From Cyanobacteria bacterium P01_F01_bin.150 (GTDB taxonomy: Bacteria; Cyanobacteriota; Cyanobacteriia; CAKZMO01), in NCBI GenBank assembly GCA_039189765.1, contig JBCCYL010000002.1:117768-181767 (forward strand): 64,000 nucleotides of DNA, read 5' to 3'. Shown here piece by piece: positions 31,295 to 48,700 of this stretch (its first letter is position 1; each line of letters starts with the position of its first letter). Under the pieces are notes generated by a model. It was not told the origin of the DNA. It made no database searches and saw only the letters and a list, made by a program, of their open reading frames with translations. The position numbers were made by a program, and so were the translations under genes.

Positions 31295-32107
31295 TTGCTC
31301 AGTGAAAAAAGCAGCAAGAAAAAACAGCGAGGAAGATTAACAGTGAGACGTAACAGGTTGGCTTTCAATAGCTCCGTTCTATTTGTCCCTGCTGTGGGTA
31401 CAGCCCTAATTGCTGTGATGGGTGGACTGTTTTTAGAAATTCCTCAAATAACTGGTTTATTGGGGCAGGCGTTGAGTGGCTCGCTAGTGGCGATCGCTCA
31501 ATCCCTGCCAACTTGTGAACCCCCTGAATCAGATGAGCATCTGGTGCTAGTTGATCAGCAAACCCCTGAGGAATTGGAGCAGCTCAAAGAAGTGTTGCCC
31601 AACGGTAGCACTACAACTATCTGTCAGTATTTAGACGATACTGTGATTCGAGTGGGGGGATTTGCGAATGAAGAAGTGGCGATGGCCTGGGCAGAGTACC
31701 TTAGTAAAACAGTTCAAGTGCCAACGGCGGTTGTTAATCCGGCTAGGGCTTTTTCTGGTGTTGATGGTGCGACAGCCGAACCACCTGCTGAAGACAATGC
31801 AACTGCTGCTGTTCCTGATGAACCCTCCTATCCTGATTATGAGCCTCAGATATTAGCGGAAGGCTTTGCGGTGTTGGTGGACTATGCTGATCGAACTGAT
31901 TTGGCGATCGCAGTTCAATCAGAATTAGAGGAATCCGTTGGTTTGGCGGTCTATCGTCAAAAGCCCTATCTGATTACGTTTCAATCAGATGACTTTAAGG
32001 ATGCAGGCAAAGTACTGCGCCAGCTTATTGAAGCAGATTTTGATGCAATTCTGGTTGATAGTCGTCAGGTGGTGTTAATGACCCCTGCCGTTGCGATTAC
32101 GCCCTAG
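31295..32107 (+). CDS. Hypothetical membrane-anchored protein
   Basis: Long ORF with an N-terminal hydrophobic segment; no family recognised with confidence. Confidence 0.6.
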   Translation: MLSEKSSKKKQRGRLTVRRNRLAFNSSVLFVPAVGTALIAVMGGLFLEIPQITGLLGQALSGSLVAIAQSLPTCEPPESDEHLVLVDQQTPEELEQLKEVLPNGSTTTICQYLDDTVIRVGGFANEEVAMAWAEYLSKTVQVPTAVVNPARAFSGVDGATAEPPAEDNATAAVPDEPSYPDYEPQILAEGFAVLVDYADRTDLAIAVQSELEESVGLAVYRQKPYLITFQSDDFKDAGKVLRQLIEADFDAILVDSRQVVLMTPAVAITP

Positions 32108-32147: not shown

Positions 32148-32735
32148 TTGAGAGTTGTCTCTTGCTCTCACCATCTCCCCATGAATCGATTCTGGTCCTT
32201 ACTGACTACCTTTTTTATTAGCAGCACTTTAATACTGGGAGCTACTTTGATGGCTCCATCTTTGGCTTTGGCTTTGGGGGGTCCCCAGCCAGAGCTGAAT
32301 CAATTAGCCCCTGATTTTACGCTGCCAACCAACACAGGAGACGGCTCCATCTCTTTGGATGATTATCGAGGAGAATGGGTTGTTGTGTATTTCTATCCTA
32401 AGGATTTCACTCCTGGATGTACATTAGAGGCCCGGCGTTTTCAACAGGACTTGCTGAAATATCAAAAGCGCAATGCCACTATTTTGGGCATTAGCGTGGA
32501 TGATGTTGATTCCCATGCAGAGTTCTGTGATTCCGAAGGGTTAAAGTTTCCCCTGTTGGCTGATGTCGATGGAGCGGTTAGCAAATCCTACGGGTCTTGG
32601 CTAGGAATGAATTCCCTTCGCCACACCTATATTGTGGACCCCGATGGCCTTCTGCAGGCGCGATTTTTAGGGGTACAGCCTTCTGTTCATAGTCGTGAAG
32701 TTTTGAAGACTCTGGACAAACTACAAACGATTTAA
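32148..32735 (+). CDS. bcp: Peroxiredoxin Q / BCP with signal peptide
   Basis: YFYPKDFTPGCTLEA. Confidence 0.9.
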   Translation: MRVVSCSHHLPMNRFWSLLTTFFISSTLILGATLMAPSLALALGGPQPELNQLAPDFTLPTNTGDGSISLDDYRGEWVVVYFYPKDFTPGCTLEARRFQQDLLKYQKRNATILGISVDDVDSHAEFCDSEGLKFPLLADVDGAVSKSYGSWLGMNSLRHTYIVDPDGLLQARFLGVQPSVHSREVLKTLDKLQTI

Positions 32736-32946: not shown

Positions 32947-34914
32947 ATGTCAAACTTTCGTGCAGTGATTCTTACCGCACTTCCTGTTGAATTTGAGTCT
33001 GTGCGAGAGTTCTTGCCTAAGAGTGAGGAAGTTTGTCATCCAGCCGGAAACATTTATGAGCGTGGGGAGTTCCAAGGGAATCACTGCCTCTGGGATGTGG
33101 GCATTGCAGAAGTGGGAATGGGAGATGCGGGAGCTGCTTTTGAGACGGAACGAGCGATCTCTTTTTTTAATCCCGACGTTATTTTATTTGTGGGGGTTGC
33201 AGGTGGAATCAAAGATGTTGAGATTGGAGATGTCGTTGCGTCCACCAAAGTTTATAACTATGAGTCTGGAAAGGCGAAAGAAACGTTTAATCCCCGACCA
33301 GAGACAGGATTAAGCTCCTATGCACTGATTCAGCGGGCTATGGCAGAGCGCCGAAGTCGTGGTCAGGAGTGGCTGAGCCGTCTTAAATCTAAGCCCCAAA
33401 AACTGCCTAAGGTGAAGGTCGGGCCGATCGCTGCTGGAGAGAAAGTGATTGCCTCTAAGAAATCAGAGGTATATAAGCTTGTGGAAAAGCAATATGGTGA
33501 TGCTCTGGCGGTTGATATGGAGGGGTATGGCTTTCTAAAGGCCGCTCATGCCAATGAACATCGAGCCGTGGCAATGGTGGTGCGGGGTATTTCTGATCTA
33601 ATTGAGGGCAAGAACGATGAGGAGAATCAGGAACCAGAAGACATTCGCCAAGAAAAAGCATCTCGACATGCCAGTGCATTTGCATTCCAGCTACTGGCAA
33701 ATTTCACCCCGCAAGGAAGGTTAATTGAGGCTCCCTCAGAGGCTCAGCAGGTATCACCTCAACCTTGGGATTCGCTCTTCAACAGTTTTGATAATGTTGA
33801 TCCTGAAAGGCTTCAAACGTTTGCATCTTGCTTGGAAGAGGTATTGCCGCCTTTACAACGAGATCTTTTCCCGGAATTGAGTCAGAAGACGACGATGAAT
33901 CTTAAAACACTTCTTTCTGTAGTGGAGCGTCTTAATAGTGTAGAGCGTCTTGATAGTGTGGGTCTGCTTGTGAAATGGGTAGAGCTTATTGTGCGTGAGC
34001 CAGAAGAGCGATCTGATGATGAATTATCGGGACTTGGTTTATCTGATTTACAAGCATGGTGCGACAAACATCGTCCTTCTGTTAGGGAGCCAGAGCCAGA
34101 GCCGGAGCCAGAGAGATTGGAGTATCTGCTGATTACCCTGGAACCCAGGGATGATGACGATACAGTGTTTCTGACCGCAGAAATTCAGGCTACGAATGGC
34201 AAGTTACTCAGTAATAATCTTTTGCCTCCGGGTCAAAAATGTTCTATCGATGACCCATCTGAATCGTTATCTGAAGCCATTAATAAAGCGGGGAAAGTTA
34301 AAGCCGTTGAAATTTTCTTATCATGGCGGCATTTTCGCAAACCAATTCATGAGTGGAAAATCAATCGAGGTTTGGACGATATACATCTGAACGTGTTCAG
34401 AAATGTATTGCTGCGATCGCTTGATAGGTGTCTAGAAAAGAAATACAAGTATTTGGTAGCTGAATGGACCGAAAGGCTCCGTAGTCAGTGGGAACAACTA
34501 CCCTCCTGTGAGAATCGGGTCTTAGAAGATTATTGCCATAATGTGACGGCGTTGGATTTGGATTTTTTAAGGAGTACCTTGGTCCCAGAAGAATCTAAAT
34601 ATCTGATTTTGCACTTCTTGGATGAACTGCCAGAAGAACTTGACGAGTTAAGGAAGCTAGTTAGTATCTTAATGGAGTCAGGCATTCCTATCTGCTTATG
34701 GCCGCGTGATGAGCCGATTCAATCTGAGAGCGTTCCAGAATCCCTTGCAACACTTCTTTGCGATATGAACGTGCTGCGCCAGCCAAGCCGCTTGGCGGCT
34801 AGTATTCGAAAACTCGATACTCCTTTGTCAAATTTAGGTTTACTATGCGAGTGTCCTTACCGATTACCTGGTTTGGTGGATTGGAAAAGTGGCCGTTTGC
34901 GCCAGCCTGCTTAG
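32947..34914 (+). CDS. PNP/MTA-SAH nucleosidase effector fused to a putative vWA-MoxR-associated protein (VMAP) C-terminal region
   Basis: ILTALPVEF, FVGVAGG, GDVV, AVDMEG.G and VRGISD nucleosidase motifs. The C-terminal VEIFL...PIHEW...LRSLDR and GIPICLW.R segments resemble VMAP-C, and the gene precedes MoxR and vWA. Confidence 0.8.
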   Translation: MSNFRAVILTALPVEFESVREFLPKSEEVCHPAGNIYERGEFQGNHCLWDVGIAEVGMGDAGAAFETERAISFFNPDVILFVGVAGGIKDVEIGDVVASTKVYNYESGKAKETFNPRPETGLSSYALIQRAMAERRSRGQEWLSRLKSKPQKLPKVKVGPIAAGEKVIASKKSEVYKLVEKQYGDALAVDMEGYGFLKAAHANEHRAVAMVVRGISDLIEGKNDEENQEPEDIRQEKASRHASAFAFQLLANFTPQGRLIEAPSEAQQVSPQPWDSLFNSFDNVDPERLQTFASCLEEVLPPLQRDLFPELSQKTTMNLKTLLSVVERLNSVERLDSVGLLVKWVELIVREPEERSDDELSGLGLSDLQAWCDKHRPSVREPEPEPEPERLEYLLITLEPRDDDDTVFLTAEIQATNGKLLSNNLLPPGQKCSIDDPSESLSEAINKAGKVKAVEIFLSWRHFRKPIHEWKINRGLDDIHLNVFRNVLLRSLDRCLEKKYKYLVAEWTERLRSQWEQLPSCENRVLEDYCHNVTALDLDFLRSTLVPEESKYLILHFLDELPEELDELRKLVSILMESGIPICLWPRDEPIQSESVPESLATLLCDMNVLRQPSRLAASIRKLDTPLSNLGLLCECPYRLPGLVDWKSGRLRQPA

Positions 34915-34936
34915 CCCTATATGTTTTGTAAGTTCT

Positions 34937-36151
34937 ATGTCTAACTGGAAATTTTTTACTGGTCAACTAAAGCAAGATAATACGCCTCGGCAATCTCCAT
35001 TGGAGCCAATTGGGGAGCGACCGGCTTGGCGGCAGTTTATGGCTAAGGACGAGTTTGAAAAAACGTGGGCAAAGGCAAGTAAGGCTCGATGGAAGGCATT
35101 GCGGAGTGAGGGGCGACTGGACACGCGATCACGAGAAAAGGGGCAGAGCTTTCGGATTCGGCAAATGGATAATGGCCAGTCTGAGATTCAGACGGCGGTG
35201 AATTCGGCATTGGCTTTGCGGCGTCCACTATTGATTACGGGCAATCCAGGGTCGGGGAAGACATCGTTGGCCTATGCGATCGCCTACGAACTCAATCTAG
35301 GCCCTGTCTTGCTATGGCCCATTACTACCCGCACCAGGTTATCGGATGCGCTCTATCAGTATGATGCGATCGCCCGTTTGCAGGATACTCAGTTTGATAA
35401 GGCGGAACTGGAGTTACAACTGCTATTGGCGAAGGCGGACGATAAAACGCCAGATCGCACCAAAATCGAAGCGCTTAAAAAAGGCCGCAACCTGGGCGAT
35501 TATATTCAGCTTGGGCCCGTGGGAACTGCGTTTCTGCCGTCCCATTTACCCCGTGTGTTGTTAATTGACGAGATTGACAAGAGCGAGTTAAACCTGCCCA
35601 ATGATCTGCTGAATTTGTTTGAGGAAGGCAGCTACAACATTCCAGAATTGGCCCGACAAAAGAGTAGTGCAAAGGTGTCGGTGCGGACGGCAGATGATGA
35701 GCTATCGGCGGATATTGTTAAGGGCAAGGTGACCTGTTACGAATTTCCATTGGTTATTTTGACCAGTAATGGGGAACGGGACTTTCCTCCAGCGTTTCTG
35801 CGTCGCTGTTTGCGGATTAATATGCCTGACCCCACGGAAAGTGATGTGCTGGAGCGTATTGTTGGGGCACACTTTGAATGCGCTGAACATCTGGAGGGAG
35901 AGCGTTCCTGGCCTGAATTAAAAGAGGATATTCGACCGCTGATTGAGGCGTTTGCTAAGGACCTTGGACGCAAGAAATCGTCTTTAGCGACGGATCAACT
36001 GCTGAATTTAATCTATATGGTGCGTCAGTCCCAAATTAGTGTCACTGAGGCCATGGGTGATGAGAGCCAGCACAAGGAAAAAACAGCGGAATTAGACACT
36101 CTCAAAGCCATCTTGCTGCGTCGTCTCACAGGGGAAGCGGGTCGCAAATGA
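34937..36151 (+). CDS. MoxR family AAA+ ATPase
   Basis: LRRPLLITGNPGSGKTSLA, LLIDEIDK and TSNGERDFPPAFLRRC motifs. Confidence 0.92.
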   Translation: MSNWKFFTGQLKQDNTPRQSPLEPIGERPAWRQFMAKDEFEKTWAKASKARWKALRSEGRLDTRSREKGQSFRIRQMDNGQSEIQTAVNSALALRRPLLITGNPGSGKTSLAYAIAYELNLGPVLLWPITTRTRLSDALYQYDAIARLQDTQFDKAELELQLLLAKADDKTPDRTKIEALKKGRNLGDYIQLGPVGTAFLPSHLPRVLLIDEIDKSELNLPNDLLNLFEEGSYNIPELARQKSSAKVSVRTADDELSADIVKGKVTCYEFPLVILTSNGERDFPPAFLRRCLRINMPDPTESDVLERIVGAHFECAEHLEGERSWPELKEDIRPLIEAFAKDLGRKKSSLATDQLLNLIYMVRQSQISVTEAMGDESQHKEKTAELDTLKAILLRRLTGEAGRK

Positions 36152-39087
36152 GCACAGAGCAGTTTGTCGCAGCATTGAGTGAGTGTGACCTCAATCCCAC
36201 AGAGATCGCGGATATTCTCTGGCTAGCGCTGCGTCAACTGGATTCTGCTGAGCAATTTGGTGAGGATAAGACTAATGATGGCCAGGAGGATGGGGCTAGA
36301 GGCGATGATGGCCAGGAGGATGGGGCTGGAGACGATGATGGCCAGGAGGATGAGGCTGGAGACGATGATGGCCAGGAGGATGAGGCTGGAGACGATGATA
36401 GCCAGGAGGATGGGGCTGAAGACGATGATGGCCAAAACGCTGTAGAAGATGGCGCGGCTGGTGGTGATCTTCCCCCTGGCGATGACGATGAAGAAGAGAG
36501 CGGAGAAGAAACCGGGGACGAGGATAAGGATGACGGCTCTGACCAACAGTCGTCCTTTGATATTGCTGCACAGGATGCTTCGGGGGTCTTGCCAGAAAAA
36601 GCGGTCCCCATTTCGGTTCCTGATGCAGGTTTTCTAGAGGAAACGTTACCGCTGGTGCGGGCCTTGCGACCCATCCTAAAGCAAATTGCCTCTGAGACCG
36701 TTAGCTATGTGGATGAGGCGGCAACGGTGGATCGGATTGCGGAGACAAATATCTGGTCGCCGGTGCTGCAACCGGATTATGAACCGTGGTTTGATGTAGC
36801 CTTTGTAATCGATAGCAGTGCTTCCATGCATTTATGGGAGCGGTTGATTCAGGATATTCAGCGGTTGTTGCGCTGCTATGGGTCATTTCGAGACTTTCGA
36901 GTTTGGCAGTTGAAGGTGACAGAAGGCCAGGTGGGTATTTGTGCGGTGCCGGATCAGGTTATGCGCCATCCAAGGGCGTTGCTTGCGCCGGATGGTCGTC
37001 GGCTGACGTTGGTGTTTAGTGACTGTACGGCGGAATATTGGTGGGATGGAACGCTTCAGCCGATGCTGGCCCTGTGGGGAGAGTCCATGCCGACATCAAT
37101 TTGGCAGGTGCTGCCCGATTGGATGTGGAAGCGTACGGCGTTGGGGGTTGGGGAGTATGTGGCGATTCGAAATCGGATTCCTGGGGCGACAAATGGAGAG
37201 CTAAACCCGATCTTTTTATCATTACGTCCATCGATTTTATCGCCAGCGGAGCCGTCTCAGGCGGCAGATAGTTTGGTTGGGGCTTCACCAGCTAAGCCGA
37301 TTTGTGTGCCTGTGATTACTACGGAGTCCGAGTCCCTGAGTGCTTGGAGTCGAATGGTGGCAGGGGATCGGCGGTCGTCAACGCCGGGGTTTGTGTTGCC
37401 GGAGAGGGGCTGGGAGAAGGAGCGGCCAACGCCATCAGATGATTTACAAGGGGATGCCGATCAGCAAGAGGTTGCAGACCAACAGTTGGAGCAATTTCGC
37501 TTACGAGCGACCCCTGAGGCCCGTCGATTGGCGGCGTTATTATCGGCTGCGCCGGTGATTACCTTGCCGATTATGCGGTTGATTCGAGCGTCCATGTTGT
37601 CTGGCACGTCTCCATTGCCGGTGGCTGAGGTCTTTTTAGGCGGGTTGTTAAAGCGGACATCCACCCCAGGGCAGACGCCAGATAAGCCGATAGATACTGA
37701 GCTGGTCCAGTATGATTTGCCGATTGAAACGCGGAATCGCCTGTTGGATGTGTTGCCAAAGGTGGAGGCGATTGAGGTGATCGAGGCGGTGTCCCAACAT
37801 ATTTCTGAGCAGTTGGGGCTGACTCTGATGGATTTTCGGGCATTGCTGTTATCTCTTGACTTAAAACAGGAGGCGGATCAGTATGACCTAAAAGCGTTTG
37901 CCCGTGTGACGGCCCAGATTTTACGAAAGTTGGGGAAGGAGTATGCGGCCTTAGCGGACCAATTTGAGGTTCCTCTGGAGCCTGATATCCCTCGGACACA
38001 GAAATGGTTGGATCTGCCCCTGGAGGAGTTTGAGCACGAATCGGCTAGGCTTGTGGCTTTGCCTAGTGAGCCGAGGGCGATCGCCCTTACCATAGTTACG
38101 TTAAGCATTCAGCCAGACTATGCTGCGGGGCTGGAAGAGGTGGAAGACCGTCAGGCTGAAGTTGTGACGCTGGTGGTTGACGAAGCAGAGCAACCATCAG
38201 TATTTGATCAGTTAGAACCGTTTCCAATTCAGATTGCAACGGTTGAACGTCAAGGGTCTGAGTGGGTGGTTAACTATACCGAATCAGAGGCCGATCGCTA
38301 TATTGAGACCTTGCCAGGGGGAATTTCTTTGGAATTAGCAAGGATTCCATCTGGGGGCTTTATGATGGGGGCACCAGAGGATGAACCAGAGCGCCATGGG
38401 CGGGAAACTCAGCATCGAGTGACGATCGCTTATGACTTTTTGATGGGGCGCTATCCCGTGACTCAGGCTCAGTGGCGGGTGGTTGCATCCTCCCTGCCTC
38501 AGATTGTTCGGAATCTAAAACCAGCCCCATCTAAATTTAAAGAGGAGAAGCGTCCGGTTGAACGAGTCAGTTGGCATGAGGCGATAGAGTTTTGTAATCG
38601 CCTTAATCGCTATTTTGAGGGGCGCTCTATCCCGGAGGGGTACGAATATCGCTTACCGAGCGAAATTGAATGGGAATATGCCTGTCGTGCAGAAACCACT
38701 ACTCCCTTTTATTTTGGGCCAATGATTACGACCGAGGTAGCAAATTATAGCGGTAGCTCCTATGACGATGGACCTACTGGAAAAAGGCGAGGAGAAACCA
38801 CCCCAGTTACCGAGTTTAACCATGCCAATCAATTTGGCCTATCGGATATGCATGGCAATGTTTGGGAATGGTGCTTAGATGAGTGGTGGCATCAGAATTA
38901 CAGGGGTGCCACCCTCGATGGCAGTACGTGGCTAGAGAACACCCCACAAAGTAATAATAGGCATGTTAGGCGTGGCGGGTCTTGGATCTCTCGTCCGAGG
39001 TACTGTCGGTCTGCCTATCGTCTCCACGACCACTCCGACCTTCGCTCCGACTCTCTTGGTTTTCGGGTTGTTCTCGCCCCTCAATGA
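36148..39087 (+). CDS. vWA (SAV_2336-type) protein with C-terminal FGE-sulfatase/CLec domain; putative DGR target 1
   Basis: EIADILWLA N-terminus, RALRP, DE.ATV..IA, vWA VIDSSASM..W, FSDC...W; C-terminal RLPSE.EWEYACRA, DMHGNVWEW, RGGSW and GFRVV. Overlaps the MoxR stop (ATGA). Confidence 0.88.
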   Translation: MSTEQFVAALSECDLNPTEIADILWLALRQLDSAEQFGEDKTNDGQEDGARGDDGQEDGAGDDDGQEDEAGDDDGQEDEAGDDDSQEDGAEDDDGQNAVEDGAAGGDLPPGDDDEEESGEETGDEDKDDGSDQQSSFDIAAQDASGVLPEKAVPISVPDAGFLEETLPLVRALRPILKQIASETVSYVDEAATVDRIAETNIWSPVLQPDYEPWFDVAFVIDSSASMHLWERLIQDIQRLLRCYGSFRDFRVWQLKVTEGQVGICAVPDQVMRHPRALLAPDGRRLTLVFSDCTAEYWWDGTLQPMLALWGESMPTSIWQVLPDWMWKRTALGVGEYVAIRNRIPGATNGELNPIFLSLRPSILSPAEPSQAADSLVGASPAKPICVPVITTESESLSAWSRMVAGDRRSSTPGFVLPERGWEKERPTPSDDLQGDADQQEVADQQLEQFRLRATPEARRLAALLSAAPVITLPIMRLIRASMLSGTSPLPVAEVFLGGLLKRTSTPGQTPDKPIDTELVQYDLPIETRNRLLDVLPKVEAIEVIEAVSQHISEQLGLTLMDFRALLLSLDLKQEADQYDLKAFARVTAQILRKLGKEYAALADQFEVPLEPDIPRTQKWLDLPLEEFEHESARLVALPSEPRAIALTIVTLSIQPDYAAGLEEVEDRQAEVVTLVVDEAEQPSVFDQLEPFPIQIATVERQGSEWVVNYTESEADRYIETLPGGISLELARIPSGGFMMGAPEDEPERHGRETQHRVTIAYDFLMGRYPVTQAQWRVVASSLPQIVRNLKPAPSKFKEEKRPVERVSWHEAIEFCNRLNRYFEGRSIPEGYEYRLPSEIEWEYACRAETTTPFYFGPMITTEVANYSGSSYDDGPTGKRRGETTPVTEFNHANQFGLSDMHGNVWEWCLDEWWHQNYRGATLDGSTWLENTPQSNNRHVRRGGSWISRPRYCRSAYRLHDHSDLRSDSLGFRVVLAPQ
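36276..36437 (+). repeat. Coding 30-bp acidic tandem repeat (DDGQED(G/E)AGD, about 5 copies)
   Basis: GATGATGGCCAGGAGGATG(G/A)GGCTGGAGAC units. Confidence 0.9.
38971..39087 (+). repeat. Putative DGR variable region VR1
   Basis: 117-bp block homologous to 39879, 41217 and 42181, with variation at codon positions 1-2. Confidence 0.75.
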
Positions 39088-39158
39088 CTCCTTTTGTAAT
39101 TTGCCTTATTTCATTTTATTTTCTACATATAAAAATAATAAAATCTCATTGATTAGAA

Positions 39159-39995
39159 ATGGCGACATCCTCCAGTACGGCTCCTAGGAAAATTCGGGAA
39201 GAACGTGAGACGACGACGTTTCGGTTTGGGCAAGAGCGGTTGAATGATGAGGTTCTGCTGAATTTGGTGCGGATTCTGGCTGGGGGTTTCATTATGGGGT
39301 CGCCAGAGGGAGAAGAGGGGCGTTCTGATGCTGAAGGTCCTCAGCGCTTGGTGTCAGTGTCGGAGTTCTGGATGGGGCAGTATCCCGTGACTCAGCAAGA
39401 ATGGCGGATTGTGGCTGGATATACCAAGGTTGAACGAGATATGGAGCTTGACCCATCTCATTTTAAGGGAGGCCGTCGTCCGGTCGAGAGAGTATCCTGG
39501 GATGATGCGGTGGAGTTTTGTCAACGCCTCTCGCAGCATACAGGCCGTAACTACCGCTTACCTTCGGAAGCTGAATGGGAATATGCCTGTCGGGCGGAAA
39601 CTAAGACCCCCTTTCATTTGGGTCTAACCCTTTCAGCCAAATACTCTAACTACGACGCCAGGGAAGTGTATGGTCTTGGGACACAGGGAGAATATCGAAG
39701 GGGAACTGTGGATGTAGATCACTTTCAGGTGACCAATAACTTTGGATTGGTCGGGATGCATGGCAATGTGTGGGAATGGTGCCAGGACCACTGGCATGAA
39801 AGCTATAAGGGTGCCCCCCTCAATGGTAGTGCATGGATGGAGAACACCTCACATAGTAAGAATAGGGACTGCGTATTTCGTGGCGGGGCTTGGTTAACTC
39901 GTCCGAGAGACTGTCGGTCTGCCTTTCGTGGCCACAATCTTCCCGCCTATCGCCGCCGCAATCTCGGTTTTCGGGTAGTTCTCGCCCCCCAATGA
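39159..39995 (+). CDS. Stand-alone FGE-sulfatase/CLec protein; putative DGR target 2
   Basis: F.MGS, YPVTQ, RLPSEAEWEYACRA, MHGNVWEW, RGGAW and GFRVVLAPQ. Confidence 0.9.
   Translation: MATSSSTAPRKIREERETTTFRFGQERLNDEVLLNLVRILAGGFIMGSPEGEEGRSDAEGPQRLVSVSEFWMGQYPVTQQEWRIVAGYTKVERDMELDPSHFKGGRRPVERVSWDDAVEFCQRLSQHTGRNYRLPSEAEWEYACRAETKTPFHLGLTLSAKYSNYDAREVYGLGTQGEYRRGTVDVDHFQVTNNFGLVGMHGNVWEWCQDHWHESYKGAPLNGSAWMENTSHSKNRDCVFRGGAWLTRPRDCRSAFRGHNLPAYRRRNLGFRVVLAPQ
39879..39995 (+). repeat. Putative DGR variable region VR2
   Basis: 117-bp homologous block; the most diverged of the four. Confidence 0.7.
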
Positions 39996-40035
39996 CTCCT
40001 TTGCTTTTTCTTTTTTGTCTTTTTGCCTTTGCCCC

Positions 40036-40087
40036 GGTGCCCAGACTCTGGCTCCCGGAGCATTCCCAGCCAGAGTCTGGGAATCAG
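40036..40087. repeat. REP-like element (short, internally deleted form)
   Basis: GGTGCCCAGACTCTGGCT...TTCCCAGCCAGAGTCTGGGAATCAG. Confidence 0.7.
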
Positions 40088-40111
40088 GGGGATCAGAGGG
40101 GCGGCTGAGGA

Positions 40112-40240
40112 TCAGGCATCAAGCAAGTCAAACAGAATCTGCACCAGTTTAGGAGCGCTAAAAATTGGAATCCATTTGGTGGTTGTGCAGGTGACAAAGT
40201 GGGGCTGGTTGCCCACAGTCCGATATTGAGAACGATCCAT
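40112..40240 (-). pseudogene. Truncated REP-associated tyrosine transposase (RAYT, Y1/HUH) N-terminal fragment
   Basis: MDRSQYRTVGNQPHFVTCTTTKWIPIFSAPKLVQILFD resembles RAYT N-termini. It stops after 42 codons, before any HUH motif, and is flanked by REP-like elements. Confidence 0.7.
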
Positions 40241-40333
40241 ACTGAAGATTAAATAATGTGGTCTTAACGTTCCCAATTGAATTGGAAGATTGCATACTGA
40301 AAGGCAGATATGTTCGCATTCCTCCAGTCCACC

Positions 40334-40442
40334 CTGGTGCCCAGACTCCGGCTGGGTGCAATGGACGAGACTCTGGCTCGTCTGCCTTTGTTTTTGGAGC
40401 CGGAGTCTCCAAGAGGATTCCCAGCTAGAGTCTGGGAATGAG
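40334..40442. repeat. REP/REPIN-like element
   Basis: CTGGTGCCCAGACTCCGGCTGGGTG...TTCCCAGCTAGAGTCTGGGAATGAG; homologous to 43847-43960. Confidence 0.8.
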
Positions 40443-40481
40443 GTGTGTAAGAGTTGTAAGTTGATTGGAGTATTCCCTTCA

Positions 40482-41333
40482 ATGGTTGTTTTCATCCCCA
40501 AAAAACGAACGCACACCGACCAGCGCTTTTTTGAAGCCTTGGGGAATAACCAACGATTGGAAATGGTGTTAATTCAGGAGGGAACCTTTACGATGGGATC
40601 TCCTGATAATGAGGAAAAACGCAGAGATGCGGAAGGTCCACAGCGTGAGGTAACGGTTTCAACTTTTCTGATGGGCCGTTATCCCGTGACCCAATCCCAG
40701 TGGCGGCAAGTGTCTAAATTTGACCCCGTTGACCCGGATATTGAATTTCCCCCTAATCCATCTCGCTTCAAGAATAAGCAAGATAGCGATCATCGTCCGG
40801 TGGAGCAGGTGAATTGGCATCAGGCCAATGAGTTCTGTGCTCGCCTCAATCAGTTTCTTGAATCCCGCTCCAGCACTCCATTGAATCGAGCCTATCGCTT
40901 ACCGTCCGAAGCAGAGTGGGAATATGCTTGTCGAGCTGGAACTACCACTCCTTTTTATTGCGGCGAAACCATCTCCACAGACGTCGCCAATTATGATGGC
41001 AACTACACCTACGGTAGAGGGCCAAAAGGCCGATATCGAGAAGAAACTACCCCTGTCGGCTCTTTGGAGTCTGGCAATTCCTGGGGACCGTGTGATATGC
41101 ATGGCAATGTTTGGGAATGGTGCCAAGACCACTGGCATGAAAATTACAAGTATGCCCCCCTCGATGGCAGTGCATGGCTGGAGAACACCCCACAAAGTGA
41201 GAATAGGCGGGTGAACCGTGGCGGGTCTTGGCTCGCTCGTCCATGGTTCTGTCGGTCTGCCTGTCGCAACCGCTACCACCCCGACGGTCGCGACGCCTAT
41301 CTTGGTTTTCGTGTTGTTCTCGCCCCCCAATGA
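40482..41333 (+). CDS. Stand-alone FGE-sulfatase/CLec protein; putative DGR target 3
   Basis: ATG at 40482 with an upstream GGAG (the ORF-track extension to 40290 runs through a REP); LEMVLI..GTFTMGS, RLPSEAEWEYACRA and GFRVVLAPQ. Confidence 0.9.
   Translation: MVVFIPKKRTHTDQRFFEALGNNQRLEMVLIQEGTFTMGSPDNEEKRRDAEGPQREVTVSTFLMGRYPVTQSQWRQVSKFDPVDPDIEFPPNPSRFKNKQDSDHRPVEQVNWHQANEFCARLNQFLESRSSTPLNRAYRLPSEAEWEYACRAGTTTPFYCGETISTDVANYDGNYTYGRGPKGRYREETTPVGSLESGNSWGPCDMHGNVWEWCQDHWHENYKYAPLDGSAWLENTPQSENRRVNRGGSWLARPWFCRSACRNRYHPDGRDAYLGFRVVLAPQ
41217..41333 (+). repeat. Putative DGR variable region VR3
   Basis: 117-bp homologous block. Confidence 0.75.
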
Positions 41334-41439
41334 TTCCCCTTTGCCATCTGCTTTTTTGCCTTTCGCTTTCTTCAAGAAATATTCAGTTAAACCTTTCGAT
41401 AAATTAACTAGAAATTATTCAGAGTAAAATCCTTCGCCG

Positions 41440-42297
41440 ATGGTTTCCTCCCCTCCCACCGAATCCAATCCCAAATGCCATATTGACCGAGAACCGATTG
41501 AGGTGATATCGGTTCAGCAGCCGTTAAATAACGACGTGAGTTTGGTCTTGGTGCAGATTCCAGAGGGGGATTTTATGATGGGGTCCCCAGAAGATGAACT
41601 CGAACGAAGCGATGCAGAAGGGCCGCAGCACCCGGTGCATATTCAGGAATTTTGGATGGGGCAATATCCCGTAACCCAGGCAGAATGGCGCATTGTGGCC
41701 AGCTATCGCAAAGTAAACCATGACTTAGCGGCTGCCCCCTCCGAATTCAAAGGAGATCGATTGCCCGTCGAGAACGTGTCTTGGGATGATGCGGTGGAGT
41801 TTTGTCAGCGCCTCTCCCAAAACACCGGATTGAACTATCGCCTCCCCACCGAAGCCGAATGGGAATACGCCTGTCGAGCTAAAACCACAACCCCCTTCCA
41901 TTTTGGCAAAACCATCACCACTGAGTATGCCAACTATCGAGGAACCGATGATGAGTATGGAAATTCTGGTTCCTATGGGGGTGGCCCCAAAGGGGGCTAT
42001 CGAGAGGAAACAACTTCTGTAGGCTCCTTTGAGGTCACTAACCACTTTGGCCTTGCCGATATGCACGGCAATGTGTGGGAGTGGTGCCAGGACCACTGGC
42101 ATGACAACTATAAGGATGCCCCCTCCGATGGCAGTGCTTGGCTGGGCAACACCCCACAAAGTATTAATATGCGTGTAATTCGTGGCGGGTCTTGGCTCGA
42201 TCGTCCATGGTACTGTCGGTCTGCCTATCGTGGCCGCAACCCCCCCGGCCTTCGCCACCTCAATCTTGGTTTTCGTGTAGTTCTTGCCCCCCAATGA
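41440..42297 (+). CDS. Stand-alone FGE-sulfatase/CLec protein; putative DGR target 4
   Basis: FMMGSPEDE, RLPTEAEWEYACRA, DMHGNVWEW, RGGSW and GFRVVLAPQ. Confidence 0.9.
   Translation: MVSSPPTESNPKCHIDREPIEVISVQQPLNNDVSLVLVQIPEGDFMMGSPEDELERSDAEGPQHPVHIQEFWMGQYPVTQAEWRIVASYRKVNHDLAAAPSEFKGDRLPVENVSWDDAVEFCQRLSQNTGLNYRLPTEAEWEYACRAKTTTPFHFGKTITTEYANYRGTDDEYGNSGSYGGGPKGGYREETTSVGSFEVTNHFGLADMHGNVWEWCQDHWHDNYKDAPSDGSAWLGNTPQSINMRVIRGGSWLDRPWYCRSAYRGRNPPGLRHLNLGFRVVLAPQ
42181..42297 (+). repeat. Putative DGR variable region VR4
   Basis: 117-bp homologous block. Confidence 0.75.
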
Positions 42298-42511
42298 CTG
42301 GGCTGCGCACTCTGGGGCTTCTTAACGGAGGCGTATTTATGCAAGATCGCTGCCCGGAACCCACCACCCCTAGCCCCTCCAAGGAGGGGAACCGGAACGT
42401 AGCCCAAGTCTCTATCTACCTCCGGCTCTCTTGGGAGGGGTTGGGGGTGGGTCAGTCGAGACCCTGGCTGCGAATGAGGGAATTAGGCATAAGGGATAAC
42501 TTACTCATAAC

Positions 42512-43726: not shown

Positions 43727-43846
43727 AAACTAGCTCAATCCTTGGAATTCGACGTGCTACTAATAGCTATCTCTGGCCCTTGGGTAGATATTCAAAAAAC
43801 AGCCAAAGGCTGGGAATGAGAGGTAGGTGCGATCGCCTCTTCTCTC

Positions 43847-43960
43847 CTGGTGCCCAGACTCCAGCTGGGTGCCCAAGACGAGCCAGAGTCTCGTCTGCCT
43901 TCTGCCTGGATGTGGAGCCAGAGTCTCCAAGCAGATTCCCAGACTACGGCTGGGAATGAG
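43847..43960. repeat. REP/REPIN-like element
   Basis: CTGGTGCCCAGACTCCAGCTGGGTG...TTCCCAGACTACGGCTGGGAATGAG. Confidence 0.8.
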
Positions 43961-43980
43961 GGATTGTTTGCTTTCTGATG

Positions 43981-46054: not shown

Positions 46055-48700
46055 ATGATTACAGAAGAGTTACACTCGCAACTCGATTGGCAACAGCCGC
46101 CCCTGAGCTGGTTGTCCCCTGAACAACAAAAGCAAGTAGAAGCCCACGCCACCCCCCAGCGTTTTAAGTTAGGGGAGGTGATTTGGGATACGGATAAAAC
46201 TGAGCATCAGTTTTTAATTTTGTCCGGTAATGTCCGACTAATGCCCGATGGTGGTAGTCCTATTCTGCTGAAAGCGGGGGATTGGTTTGGGGCATTGCCA
46301 CAGTTGAGCGATCGATGGAAAGCCCGTGGTGCCAGCAAAGAAGTCGTGGTCGTTCAATGGCCAGCCCAAATCTGGACCGATATGCTTGACGATCGTTTGC
46401 AGCAGTCCCAAAAAGGTCGCAATGGACGTAATGGTCGCAATGGTGACAATACTGCCAATGGTCGCAATGGTCATAATGGAGTTGCCAGTGGAAACATCAT
46501 TGATTCGTCTCAGTCCCTAAAGCGCTATTGGACAACGTTGCGATCGCGCTACCAGCCCAACTTTTCTGACGCCCCCCAGCCCGTCGATGGTTATCCCTTT
46601 GTGGCCGGAGTCAATACCGCTGCCGCCTGCTTGACCATGCTCTCCCAGCATTTTGGCACCCCAGTACAGCTAGAGTGGATGCAGCGACAGCTCCGCAGTC
46701 AGCGACCTCGCCATGTCATTGACGGATCCGAAAAAGTAGGGCTGCAAATACGGCGGTTACTGGTTGCCACCTGGGACGACCTGAGGCAAATTACCTTACC
46801 AGGGCTTACCCTATGGCAGGGAGAACGATGGGTGGTGGTCTACGAAGCGCGGGGCGATCGCCTCGTGATTGCTGACCCGATCAATCCCGACTACGTTTGT
46901 GAAAGCGTGCCCCGTGAGGTGGTGCAAGAAAACTGGGACGGAGAGCTGTGGCAGGTTGAGCTAGTTAAAAAGCAGGACAAATTTAACCTAAGCTGGTTTT
47001 TGCCAGCGGTGATGCGCTATAAAGGCCTGCTATTTGAGGTGTTGGTGGCCTCCTTTACCCTGCAGCTATTGGGATTAACCACCCCGATCCTGACCCAGGT
47101 GGTAATCGATAAGGTCATGGTGCAGCAGAGCATTCCAACGCTGGATGTAATTGCGATCGCCATGCTCGGCGTTGCCACCTTTGAGGCGATTCTGGGCATC
47201 CTGCGCATGTTTATCTTTACCCACACCACCAATCGCCTAGACCTTAGCCTTTCCGCCCAGCTTTTCCGCCATCTGCTGCGTCTGCCCCTGTCCTACTTTG
47301 AAGCCCGGCGTGTCGGGGATACCGTGGCCCGAGTGCAGGAGCTAGAGGAAATCCGCCAGTTTCTCACTAGCACTGCCCTTACCGTAGTTTTAGACAGTAT
47401 CTTTAGCGTCATCTATTTATTGGTGATGCTTTACTACAGCCCTAAACTAACAGGCGTGGCCCTGGCGGTGATTCCCCTATTTGCTATTCTTACCCTTACC
47501 GCTACACCGATCCTGCGCAACTGGCTCAACGAAACTTTTAACCGCAGCGCCGATAGTCAGTCTTTCCTGGTGGAAACGGTAACGGGCATCCATACGGTAA
47601 AGGCCCACGCCGCTGAAAAGGCAACGCGCGATCGCTGGGAAGGTCTCTATGCGCGATTTATTCGCACCGGATTTAAGGCCAACACCACCGCCAATATCAG
47701 CAACAATATTGGTAATTTTCTTACCAGCTTCTCCAGTCTGCTGCTGCTTTGGGTGGGAGCACATCTGGTCATCAAGCAGGAATTTACCATCGGTCAGCTT
47801 ATTGCCTTCCAAATGCTTTCCGCTCGGGTCACCGGGCCATTGCTACGTCTGGTGCAGCTCTGGCAAAATCTCCAGGAAGTGTTGCTGGCAGTCGATCGCA
47901 TTGGCGATATCCTTAACGTCCCCCCCGAAGCCGAACAGGGGACGGGTCTGGTACTACCCACCCTACGCGGTGCCGTCACCTTTGACCAGGTCTTTTTTCG
48001 CTACAACCAGGAACAGGACTCTATTCTAAAAGGGGTATCGTTTAAGGTGGACCCAGGCATGTTTGTGGGCCTAGTGGGTCGCAGCGGCTCCGGCAAAAGC
48101 ACCCTTTCTAAGCTAATCCAGCGACTCTACGATACTGAGTCCGGTCGCATTGCCATCGACGGCTTTGATATCAAAAGCGCCGATCTTGCCTCCCTGCGGC
48201 CCCAAATTGCCGTGGTGCTCCAGGATGATTTTCTATTTAATGGCACCGTCCTCGACAATATCACCCTAGGCAGCCATAATGCCGATGCGGAAGACGTGAT
48301 TCGTGCCGCCCAAATGGCGGTGGCCCACGACTTTATTCTTGATCTGCCCCACGGCTATGAAACCAACGTAGGGGAACGGGGCATTGCCCTATCGGGCGGT
48401 CAGCGCCAGCGGATTACCCTAGCCCGGCTATTTCTCTCCCAGGCACCTATTCTGATTTTGGATGAGGCCACTAGCCACTTGGATGCGGAAACGGAACAGC
48501 AGGTGTTGGAGAACTTACGAAGTATATCGAGCGATCGCACTGTCTTCCTAATTGCCCACCGTTTTGCGCCGCTAAAAAATGCCGATCTGATCCTGGCGAT
48601 GGAGAAAGGCGTTGTTGTTGAACGCGGCACCCACGAGTCTTTACTCCGGGATAAAGGACTATATTATTCCCTTTATCAACGACAGCAGGCGTCCGTTTAA
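46055..48700 (+). CDS. HlyB-family type I secretion ABC transporter with cNMP-like and C39-like domains
   Basis: N-terminal cNMP-like region, C39-like AAACLTML, ABC transmembrane domain (QVVIDKV, RRVGD), GRSGSGKST, LSGGQRQR and LDEATS. Confidence 0.92.
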   Translation: MITEELHSQLDWQQPPLSWLSPEQQKQVEAHATPQRFKLGEVIWDTDKTEHQFLILSGNVRLMPDGGSPILLKAGDWFGALPQLSDRWKARGASKEVVVVQWPAQIWTDMLDDRLQQSQKGRNGRNGRNGDNTANGRNGHNGVASGNIIDSSQSLKRYWTTLRSRYQPNFSDAPQPVDGYPFVAGVNTAAACLTMLSQHFGTPVQLEWMQRQLRSQRPRHVIDGSEKVGLQIRRLLVATWDDLRQITLPGLTLWQGERWVVVYEARGDRLVIADPINPDYVCESVPREVVQENWDGELWQVELVKKQDKFNLSWFLPAVMRYKGLLFEVLVASFTLQLLGLTTPILTQVVIDKVMVQQSIPTLDVIAIAMLGVATFEAILGILRMFIFTHTTNRLDLSLSAQLFRHLLRLPLSYFEARRVGDTVARVQELEEIRQFLTSTALTVVLDSIFSVIYLLVMLYYSPKLTGVALAVIPLFAILTLTATPILRNWLNETFNRSADSQSFLVETVTGIHTVKAHAAEKATRDRWEGLYARFIRTGFKANTTANISNNIGNFLTSFSSLLLLWVGAHLVIKQEFTIGQLIAFQMLSARVTGPLLRLVQLWQNLQEVLLAVDRIGDILNVPPEAEQGTGLVLPTLRGAVTFDQVFFRYNQEQDSILKGVSFKVDPGMFVGLVGRSGSGKSTLSKLIQRLYDTESGRIAIDGFDIKSADLASLRPQIAVVLQDDFLFNGTVLDNITLGSHNADAEDVIRAAQMAVAHDFILDLPHGYETNVGERGIALSGGQRQRITLARLFLSQAPILILDEATSHLDAETEQQVLENLRSISSDRTVFLIAHRFAPLKNADLILAMEKGVVVERGTHESLLRDKGLYYSLYQRQQASV

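Follow-up and report, generated by a model that had tools for sequence, protein, structure and literature searches.

The VMAP locus and its four FGE-sulfatase genes

The 64-kb window, by which we mean the whole stretch of DNA that was analysed, contains a cyanobacterial VMAP ternary conflict system (MoxR-vWA-VMAP), a defence-like locus. A VMAP component and a MoxR-like AAA+ ATPase precede four genes with C-terminal FGE/CLec domains, here called targets 1-4 (Table 1). Counterparts of the PNPase-VMAP gene with 44-50% identity occupy the same position in Leptothoe kymatousa (L004) and Leptolyngbya cf. ectocarpi (L024). The MoxR ATPase is 71-73% identical in amino-acid sequence to the neighbours of vWA-FGE genes in these two loci and 51% identical in L017, and a MoxR-like gene beside a vWA/FGE gene is kept in at least nine related loci.

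All four targets are intact ORFs with full-length domains matching Pfam FGE-sulfatase (PF03781; E 3e-45 to 3e-55). In target 1 this domain spans residues 732-975 (3e-45), while residues 84-557 match NCBIfam SAV_2336_NTERM (368 bits; cut-off 200). From this match and from synteny we assign the N-terminal module as putatively vWA-type; residues 141-451 gave no match to a Pfam vWA model at a threshold as loose as E 10. The translation contains a DSSAS motif, which may correspond to a MIDAS motif. In L005, a separate neighbouring gene matches VWA_CoxE. The start of target 3 is the probable one, an ATG picked by its likeness to the N-termini of relatives; the ORF list begins at TTG 40290.

Table 1 Features of the locus, in window coordinates.
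Feature	Position	Strand	Basis or remark
VMAP component (N-terminal purine-nucleoside-phosphorylase-superfamily domain and VMAP-C domain)	32947..34914	+	Pfam PNP_UDP_1 1.3e-26; VMAP-C PF20028 53.5 bits (cut-off 27)
MoxR-like AAA+ ATPase	34889..36151	+	Pfam AAA_5 7e-9, 36.2 bits (cut-off 22)
Target 1, 979 aa: acidic repeats, putative vWA-type N-terminal module, C-terminal FGE/CLec domain ending in VR1	36148..39087	+	SAV_2336_NTERM and FGE-sulfatase matches
VR1	38971..39087	+	differs from VR3/VR4 at 15-16/28 predicted-adenine and 3-4/68 other columns
Pyrimidine-rich tract after VR1	39088..39132	+	base composition, 0.73 C+T
Target 2, CLec-only FGE gene, 278 aa	39159..39995	+	Pfam FGE-sulfatase 8e-49
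VR2, most drifted copy	39879..39995	+	differs from other VRs at 7-9/68 non-adenine columns
Pyrimidine-rich tract after VR2	39996..40040	+	base composition, 0.84 C+T
Spacer between targets 2 and 3, small palindromic MITE-like repeats	40032..40443	.	repeat search
Target 3, CLec-only FGE gene, 283 aa from ATG 40482	40482..41333	+	Pfam FGE-sulfatase 2.5e-54
VR3	41217..41333	+	differs from VR4 at 14/28 predicted-adenine and 1/68 other columns
Pyrimidine-rich tract after VR3	41334..41378	+	base composition, 0.78 C+T
Target 4, CLec-only FGE gene, 285 aa	41440..42297	+	Pfam FGE-sulfatase 3e-55
VR4	42181..42297	+	last 117 nt of target 4; no pyrimidine-rich 3' flank

Pattern of variation in the gene ends

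The last 117 nt of all four PF03781 genes, on the same strand, form the variable regions VR1-VR4. A sequence-only reading of this DNA had aligned these ends without gaps, and we recover its coordinates and sequence, the invariant intervening TGTCGGTCTGCC and all seven of the codon sets it quoted. The VRs are more alike (pairwise nucleotide identity 0.75-0.85) than the FGE-coding sequence upstream of them (0.61-0.66). Sixteen codon columns of the VRs vary at position 1 or 2; here 59 of 64 codons end in C or T, compared with 255/496 upstream (Fisher p 4e-11), and all four genes have the same third base in 12 of the 16 columns, compared with 15/124 upstream (p 3e-7), both p values being rough because codons within one column are not independent. 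Codons for invariant residues are also identical at the nucleotide level more often in the VRs (14/21) than upstream (22/77). None of the variable positions encodes E, K, Q, M or V, the first four being those encoded by NNR codons only; the VRs contain no stop codons and all target ORFs are open. The sequence-only reading, in which the third base stays C or T while positions 1 and 2 change, needs one correction: third positions do vary (12, 11 and 11 variable columns at positions 1, 2 and 3). When Met and Trp codons are counted, third positions show raised conservation throughout the last ~80 codons, beyond the 38 codons of the VR.

Of the loci fetched for the closest FGE-domain relatives (72, best 56% identity), 14 contain repeat pairs on one strand, and adenines of one copy account for 75-100% of the mismatches in these pairs. 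These loci often have two or three VRs per template repeat (TR), and the relatives' RVT_1 reverse transcriptase (RT) lies directly 5' of the TR. With 12 homologous cyanobacterial TRs as a proxy for the genome's own, 21 of the 30 columns at which half or more of them have A vary in the window VRs, compared with 13 of the 87 other columns (odds ratio 13, p 4.6e-8). Among the predicted-adenine columns, position 59 has A in every VR and eight more are invariant with a base other than A, so that the TR of this genome must differ there from the relatives' consensus.

At the non-adenine columns, VR3 and VR4 are identical in 67 of 68, VR1 agrees with these two in 64-65, and VR2 agrees with the others in 59-61. 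In nine of the variable columns none of the VRs has an A; most of these are third-position C/T changes that look like ordinary drift, and four of the nine are private to VR2. The suggestion that VR2 may be an older or inactive copy fits its 7-9 non-adenine differences, compared with 1-4 for the other pairs.

Machinery in the window and in relatives

The sequence-only reading had reported neither RT nor TR in the window, and five independent searches agree. A blastn search of the window with the four VRs returns only the four copies (next match E 0.81). There is no Pfam RVT_1 match in 36 of the 39 ORFs of at least 150 aa, the other three being a nested start variant and two antisense shadows of FGE genes. 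Ten related DGR RTs give a best E of 0.75 by tblastn against the window, and an HMM of these ten RTs gives a best E of 1.4 across 1129 stop-to-stop frames of at least 30 aa. Run with filters off, a covariance model built from the TR-3' RNA of relatives reaches at best 14.3 bits (E 0.13) in the window; true sites score 77-125 bits.

The tracts downstream of VR1-VR3 resemble those that follow the relatives' VR-type gene ends: 36 VR-type ends, the window's four included, have a mean C+T of 0.78 in the 3' flank, compared with a mean of 0.49 and a maximum of 0.71 for 174 other ORF ends. The flank of VR4 is not pyrimidine-rich (0.53 C+T). The GGCGC-NNN-GCGCC hairpin found after several relatives' VRs is absent after all four VRs of the window. 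The gap at 39996-40481 is the sole one in the array long enough for a former RT-TR unit; its repeats comprise a hairpin at 40032-40089 and an element at 40333-40443 that recurs at 43846-43961.

L004 and L024 show the syntenic order VMAP-MoxR-vWA/FGE-FGE(-FGE), and the flanking 10 kb on both sides (less on one side of L024) contain no RT, TR pair or DGR RNA in either locus. At non-adenine columns the four VRs of L004 hardly differ (mean pairwise difference 0.025), which is what continued resetting by a remote TR would produce.

A close parallel to the array is the lineage of cyanobacterial DGRs whose targets are CLec/FGE-sulfatase genes, represented among the relatives by L001, L002, L005, L007, L012, L016, L017, L026, L030 and L063, and described as Lineage 4, confined to cyanobacteria (PMC5758913), and as 'clade 5E' (PMC10907252). 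As in that lineage, the VR is the last ~120 nt of an FGE-sulfatase gene, the scaffold reads RGGSW..CRSA.R...GFRVV, and a pyrimidine-rich tract follows the stop codon (VR1-3 in the window). The lineage has AAY template codons at columns that vary in the window, and several VRs per TR. The window differs in having none of the machinery (RT, TR, TR-linked RNA) in its 64 kb, in lacking the GGCGC hairpin that follows the tract in several relatives, and in its protein tail, ...VVLAPQ*, where the relatives compared have others, such as GFRVVCSFPRAL in L001.

Among solved structures the best match is PvdO (for target 4, PDB 5hha, 1.2e-35), and the targets share their Pfam family and fold with the formylglycine-generating enzyme and PvdO (5hha, 1y1e, 2aft). 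This family-level match gives no sign of an enzyme role. In true FGE enzymes the C-terminal part is conserved, the very part that is hypervariable in the window genes. Target 4 also matches Treponema denticola TvpA (2y3c, 1.3e-19), a DGR variable protein of FGE/CLec fold whose C-terminal segment aligns with the VR, although the two are distant in sequence. TvpA is a lipoprotein of a spirochaete and is not known to belong to a MoxR/VMAP system.

Origin and maintenance of the variable regions

Taken together, the sequence pattern indicates that the four 117-bp gene ends are very probably DGR variable regions. The identification of DGR-type VRs in these CLec/FGE genes, first made in the sequence-only reading, is now strongly supported by the relatives' real TR-VR pairs and by the contrast between VR3 and VR4. 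That reading also proposed that the four are remote targets of one trans-acting DGR. We consider it probable, with some reserve, that their TR and RT lie outside the window and serve the array in trans, or did so until recently; the existence and activity of this remote unit are what we infer. The TR would be transcribed and then reverse-transcribed with errors at adenines, and the mutated cDNA would replace the 3' end of each CLec/FGE gene, turning AAY-type codons into NNY and resetting every non-adenine base to the template. With TR, RT and TR-linked RNA presumably all outside the 64 kb, such replacement would have to act in trans. VR3 and VR4 would be the freshest copies, VR1 intermediate and VR2 the oldest.

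Remote service has precedents in the literature. Diversification in trans is described in PMC10907252, and PMC7517822 counts 76 of 121 cyanobacterial DGR targets as remote. In Thiohalocapsa PB-PSB1 (Dore et al. 2024, PMC10907252), DGR 4 and 5 are served by the TR of DGR 2, and the loci resemble ours in being VMAP-type, in having CLec targets without local RT/TR and a scaffold fit for a distant TR, and in the MITE-like repeats in and around them. In Thiohalocapsa, the TR that matches has been identified and metagenomes were used to measure diversification. Its CLec domains lie in tandem within one gene, whereas those of the window lie in four separate genes.

Some observations count against this reading of the gene ends as DGR variable regions served in trans: the non-adenine divergence of the VRs (mean pairwise difference 0.078, range 0.015-0.132), the nine A-free variable columns, the nine odd predicted-adenine columns, the missing tract at VR4, the missing hairpin, and the third-position conservation that extends beyond the VR.

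The VRs could instead be relics, a possibility that we take seriously but do not think likely. The RT-TR unit would then have been lost from the genome, for example by deletion from the spacer between targets 2 and 3, leaving a frozen and slowly drifting diversity. The finding of no RT, TR or DGR RNA in the 64 kb is consistent with such a loss, as is the position of the only long gap with its MITE-like palindromes: L001 carries its RT-TR unit between the second and third FGE genes, and L017, L016 and L030 carry theirs elsewhere inside the array. The divergence of the VRs also exceeds that of eight of nine arrays with local RT/TR (0.000-0.039; the ninth, L007, 0.118), although these nine were chosen by a filter favouring clean adenine bias, which flatters their uniformity. 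VR2 has its four private changes, relatives contain decayed machinery (L054 has an RT fragment and L026 a truncated RT), and PMC10907252 reports DGR loci that are incomplete and have been shaped by transposons and MITE-like repeats. However, the single non-adenine difference between VR3 and VR4 stands beside 21 differences in the adjoining upstream 120 nt (99/120 identical), in genes that are 0.64 identical overall, so that any loss of the DGR must have been very recent. The ORFs are intact and the FGE domains full-length, and blastn, tblastn, HMM and covariance-model searches of the spacer between targets 2 and 3 found no remnant of an RT, TR or DGR RNA. The same RT-less array in two other genera, with a very uniform scaffold in L004, would call for independent recent losses, which are hard to accept.

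More than one template may have been involved, which we regard as unlikely: VR3, VR4 and probably VR1 would depend on one TR, and VR2 on a second, slightly different TR or on none. This would account for the distance of VR2 from the others at non-adenine columns, and two separate RT/TR loci per genome occur in Pantanalinema (L002, L012) and Aetokthonos (L011, L026), in line with the duplicate DGR cassettes reported for cyanobacteria in PMC7517822; but an inactive VR2 that drifted in the ordinary way would give these counts too.

Least of all do we credit, as already disfavoured and highly improbable, an array of old tandem paralogues under positive selection at ligand-binding residues, in which gene conversion kept the scaffold similar: the variable codons do lie in the ligand-binding part of the CLec fold, where selection alone could concentrate change, third-position conservation does reach over ~80 codons, and a 257-nt stretch is 82% identical between targets 3 and 4, a hint of conversion or recent duplication, yet selection leaves the C/T endings and fixed third bases unexplained, conversion would homogenise the variable codons too, the varying nucleotide columns are the adenine columns of homologous TRs beyond a mere codon match, and the closest relatives have demonstrable TR-VR pairs.

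The arrangement itself is already known. VMAP ternary conflict systems have been linked in print to DGRs, remote TRs included, and the array is a well-supported example. Kaur et al. 2020 (PMC7159879) associate roughly 80% of the VMAP systems of cyanobacteria and gammaproteobacteria with DGRs, whose TR lies nearby or elsewhere in the genome. The system with an FGS effector that they describe has the same order of VMAP-C, MoxR-like AAA+ and a vWA-type protein with C-terminal FGS/FGE, and their account places the PNPase-superfamily domain, present in the window's VMAP protein, among those shared with the VMAP component. The window differs in its three additional CLec-only genes after the fused target and in a vWA domain that Pfam does not call in target 1. 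In keeping with a published proposal, the diversified CLec domains would probably act as sensors of ligands or antigens, one fused to the vWA component and three free-standing, and the PNPase-VMAP protein would be the likely output.

Variable regions of the four FGE genes

The four FGE-sulfatase genes (targets 1-4; PF03781, E 3e-45 to 3e-55) end in 117 bp that align without gaps, and on re-alignment every detail quoted in the sequence-only reading, gap-free ends and codon sets alike, is correct. Pairwise identity is 0.75-0.85 in these variable regions (VR1-VR4) versus 0.61-0.66 in the remaining FGE-coding sequence. At codon positions 1, 2 and 3, 102, 97 and 166 columns vary upstream (213 gap-free columns), compared with 12, 11 and 11 across the 38 codons of the VRs. 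Variation at positions 1-2 affects 16 of the VR codon columns; 59 of the 64 codons in them end in C or T (255/496 upstream), the third base is common to all four genes in 12/16 of these columns (15/124 upstream), and none of the residues encoded solely by NNR (E, K, Q, M) appears at variable VR positions. The pattern is genuine and far from chance. One point of the earlier wording needs correcting: third positions change too, and adenine is absent from all VRs at nine of the variable columns. These look like ordinary C/T drift, and four of the nine are private to VR2.

A protein-profile scan yielded 72 related loci (L-numbers), nearly all cyanobacterial, with a best identity of 56%. In 14 of them, self-comparison shows the gene end repeated in non-coding sequence, with 75-100% of the mismatches at the adenines of one copy; L060, outside these 14, carries an inverted repeat pair that is T-biased (12/15 mismatches). 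The 14 loci often have two or three VRs per template repeat (TR), an RVT_1 reverse transcriptase (RT) of ~350-360 aa lies directly upstream of the TR in related DGR loci, and RT-like coding sequence is found in 16/72 loci. The adenine-biased repeat pairs and RTs mean that the nearest relatives of the window FGE domains are real DGR targets. Machinery has decayed in two relatives: L026 retains only the C-terminal part of the RT (residues 209-348) beside its TR, and L054 only a fragment (residues 15-105). Despite the partial RT, the four VRs of L026 show no difference at non-adenine columns.

As a proxy, the TRs of 12 relatives were aligned with the window VRs; those of L008 and L050 were left out, their alignments being truncated. 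Where at least half of the 12 TRs have A, the window VRs vary in 21/30 columns, versus 13/87 of the others (Fisher test, p 4.6e-8, odds ratio 13). Between VR3 and VR4, 14/28 predicted-adenine columns differ versus 1/68 others; the 120 nt directly upstream are identical at 99 positions, and the whole genes are 0.64 identical. This sharp step, with non-adenine bases reset and adenine-derived ones scrambled, is the expected product of mutagenic homing from a common template, and selection plus gene conversion would not give it. The VRs are very probably of DGR origin. VR1 differs from VR3 and VR4 at 3-4/68 non-adenine columns and VR2 from the other VRs at 7-9/68, which supports the earlier suggestion that VR2 is older or inactive, or else a different template for it.

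Third-position conservation is raised across the last ~80 codons of all four genes, twice the VR length, as in the matching segments of targets 3 and 4, and it also extends beyond the VR in L001 and L004. Motifs rich in Met and Trp (MHGNVWEWC) account for part of this. The closest solved structure to the window FGE domain is PvdO (5hha; 1.2e-35); the Treponema denticola DGR variable protein (2y3c) follows at 1.3e-19, its C-terminal part aligning with the VR.

Coordinates of features in the window (no prefix) and in related loci (L-number prefix)
Feature	Position	Strand	Remarks
P-loop NTPase gene	23601-26270	-	889 aa, TPR repeats
ORF without family	31295-32107		upstream of VMAP gene
AhpC/TSA peroxiredoxin gene	32148-32735		upstream of VMAP gene
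PNPase-superfamily domain + VMAP-C domain gene	32947-34914		upstream of targets
MoxR-like AAA+ gene	34889-36151		upstream of targets
Target 1, FGE-sulfatase gene	36148-39087	+	full-length PF03781 domain; VR1 38971-39087
Tandem acidic repeats	36250-36450		target 1 N-terminus, residues ~35-100 of 979 aa
Target 2, FGE-sulfatase gene	39159-39995	+	full-length PF03781 domain; VR2 39879-39995
Long gap of the array	39996-40481		
Target 3, FGE-sulfatase gene	40482-41333	+	full-length PF03781 domain; VR3 41217-41333; ORF list start TTG 40290
Target 4, FGE-sulfatase gene	41440-42297	+	full-length PF03781 domain; VR4 42181-42297
Matching segments, raised third-position conservation	41094-41350; 42058-42314		
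ABC exporter gene	46055-48700	+	C39 peptidase; weak cNMP-binding match
864-aa protein gene	52265-54859	-	weak patatin match
MITE-like repeat	40032-40089; 40333-40443; 43846-43961		first is a partial hairpin copy
Pyrimidine tract, examples	39996-40040; L004:10781-10825; L001:10805-10849		
Extra VR-type FGE gene	L004:3235-4053; L024:2401-3201		upstream of VMAP gene
Partial RT	L026:13073-13658; L054:11286-11558		
TR-3' RNA	L001:12866-12950		equivalent sites in L002, L005, L007, L008, L011, L012, L015, L016, L017, L026, L030, L063
TR-3' RNA, further sites	L027:197-319; L036:3730-3850		

DGR components and candidate signals

The sequence-only reading had reported neither RT nor TR in the window, and the searches agree. 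Blastn with the VRs over the window returns only the four copies and no TR. RVT_1 is absent from 36 of the 39 ORFs of at least 150 aa, the three unscanned being one nested start variant and two antisense shadows. When ten RTs of related DGR loci serve as tblastn queries the best E is 0.75, and an HMM built from these RTs gives a best E of 1.4 against 1129 stop-to-stop frames. R1, our covariance model for the relatives' TR-3' RNA, reaches a top score of 14.3 bits with filters off; on true sites it scores 98-125 bits at the 13 loci used for training, and 91 and 77 at two untrained ones. R1 detects such cyanobacterial DGRs sensitively. In the long gap of the array the VR blastn, RT tblastn, R1 and RT HMM searches give no trace of a TR or RT, and a remnant there is rejected. 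Blastn of the VR3 region in distant mode gives no match among PLSDB plasmids.

The RNA modeled by R1 is conserved and structured and begins at the TR 3' end in cyanobacterial DGRs, with a CTCTTC...GAAGAG outer stem around a 9-bp hairpin; of 18 predicted pairs, 10 show compensatory changes. Its probable counterpart is the spacer RNA of phage BPP-1. There is no match to an Rfam 15 family at gathering thresholds in L001, L007, L017 or the window, nor at E up to 1 in L001 12500-13040.

VR-type genes are followed, in the 45 nt after the stop codon, by a pyrimidine-rich tract of CCCTTT/GCCCTTT-like repeats, with a mean C+T of 0.78 for 36 such genes versus 0.49 for 174 other ORF ends. Several relatives' tracts terminate in a GGCGC-NNN-GCGCC hairpin. 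The tract is absent after TRs and missing after VR4; we regard it as a candidate recipient-site signal. The words 'pyrimidine' and 'hairpin' do not occur in the text of one paper, PMC5758913. Small palindromic MITE-like repeats, the two ~110-nt copies of which are 82% identical, flank and interrupt the target array.

A VMAP locus with lectin-fold targets

The locus corresponds to the VMAP ternary conflict system described by Kaur et al. 2020 (PMC7159879). According to that paper, the FGS domain occurs almost exclusively in the VMAP systems of cyanobacteria, a DGR is associated with ~80% of the VMAP systems of cyanobacteria and gammaproteobacteria, and the linked TR is found in the same neighborhood or at another genomic site. 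Vallota-Eastman et al. 2020 (PMC7517822) give 76 of 121 cyanobacterial DGR targets as remote, and Dore et al. 2024 (PMC10907252) describe a diversified vWA-CLec protein as the proposed antigen sensor. In its N-terminal half, target 1 has a match to NCBIfam SAV_2336_NTERM (368 bits), and Pfam finds no vWA domain there. This half also contains tandem acidic repeats (DDGQEDGA/E-like units), seen in translation and in shadow ORFs on both strands; the L004 and L024 counterparts align only over residues 1-30 and from ~146 onward.

Both of these syntenic relatives have, upstream of the VMAP gene, an extra VR-type FGE gene. Unrelated genes take that place in the window; the ORF without family was considered as a counterpart of the extra gene, and tblastn gave no match. 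The P-loop NTPase, ABC exporter and 864-aa protein genes are other conflict-type or export genes.

Service in trans or relic

We consider it probable that a still-existing remote DGR serves the array, with a putative TR and RT outside the window. The same array is carried by L004 (Leptothoe kymatousa TAU-MAC 1615) and L024 (Leptolyngbya cf. ectocarpi), at identities to the window of 71-73% for MoxR, 62% for the vWA N-terminus and 44-50% for VMAP. Neither has an RT, TR pair or DGR RNA within 10 kb each side (one L024 side being shorter), and the four VRs of L004 are nearly identical at non-adenine columns, with a mean pairwise difference of 0.025. Four tandem FGE genes also occur on L003, a 6.4-kb contig, with VR scaffolds 74-80% nucleotide-identical to those of the window.

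Recent loss of the DGR, leaving the VRs as relics, is possible but rather unlikely. It would fit the mean pairwise non-adenine difference of 0.078 in the window versus 0.000-0.039 in eight of nine arrays with local RT and TR (the ninth, L007, is at 0.118), a comparison that flatters the local arrays, which were chosen by a filter favoring clean ones. It would also fit the MITE-like repeats that lie in the array's only long gap, and the RT-TR unit of L001, which occupies the corresponding place, after the second FGE gene and before the third; such a unit is also inside the array, at other positions, in L017, L016 and L030.

An extension of the remote-DGR reading, which we consider improbable, is that arrays lacking an RT, with one CLec target fused to vWA and several free ones, are a stable and conserved layout, in which a single distant master DGR would diversify several VMAP sensor genes in trans and the pyrimidine tract after the stop would be a cis licensing signal. 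The window and Leptothoe L004 have this layout, L024 has it in part and the MAG contig L003 possibly. If this were true, the tract-less VR4 and the drifting VR2 would be natural examples of licensing that is lost or weak.

The four gene ends are a well-supported group of DGR variable regions in a locus of known kind, not a new system, and they leave general knowledge of DGRs unchanged. The locus shows that homologous TRs of other genomes can authenticate orphan VRs when their own TR is out of reach. It is a clean four-target addition to the cyanobacterial VMAP/MoxR systems with DGR-rewritten lectin-fold sensors. The existence and activity of the remote TR and RT are putative; if such a TR exists, the gradient of freshness (VR3 and VR4 > VR1 > VR2), together with the tract-less VR4, would provide a natural series for the study of recipient competence in trans.
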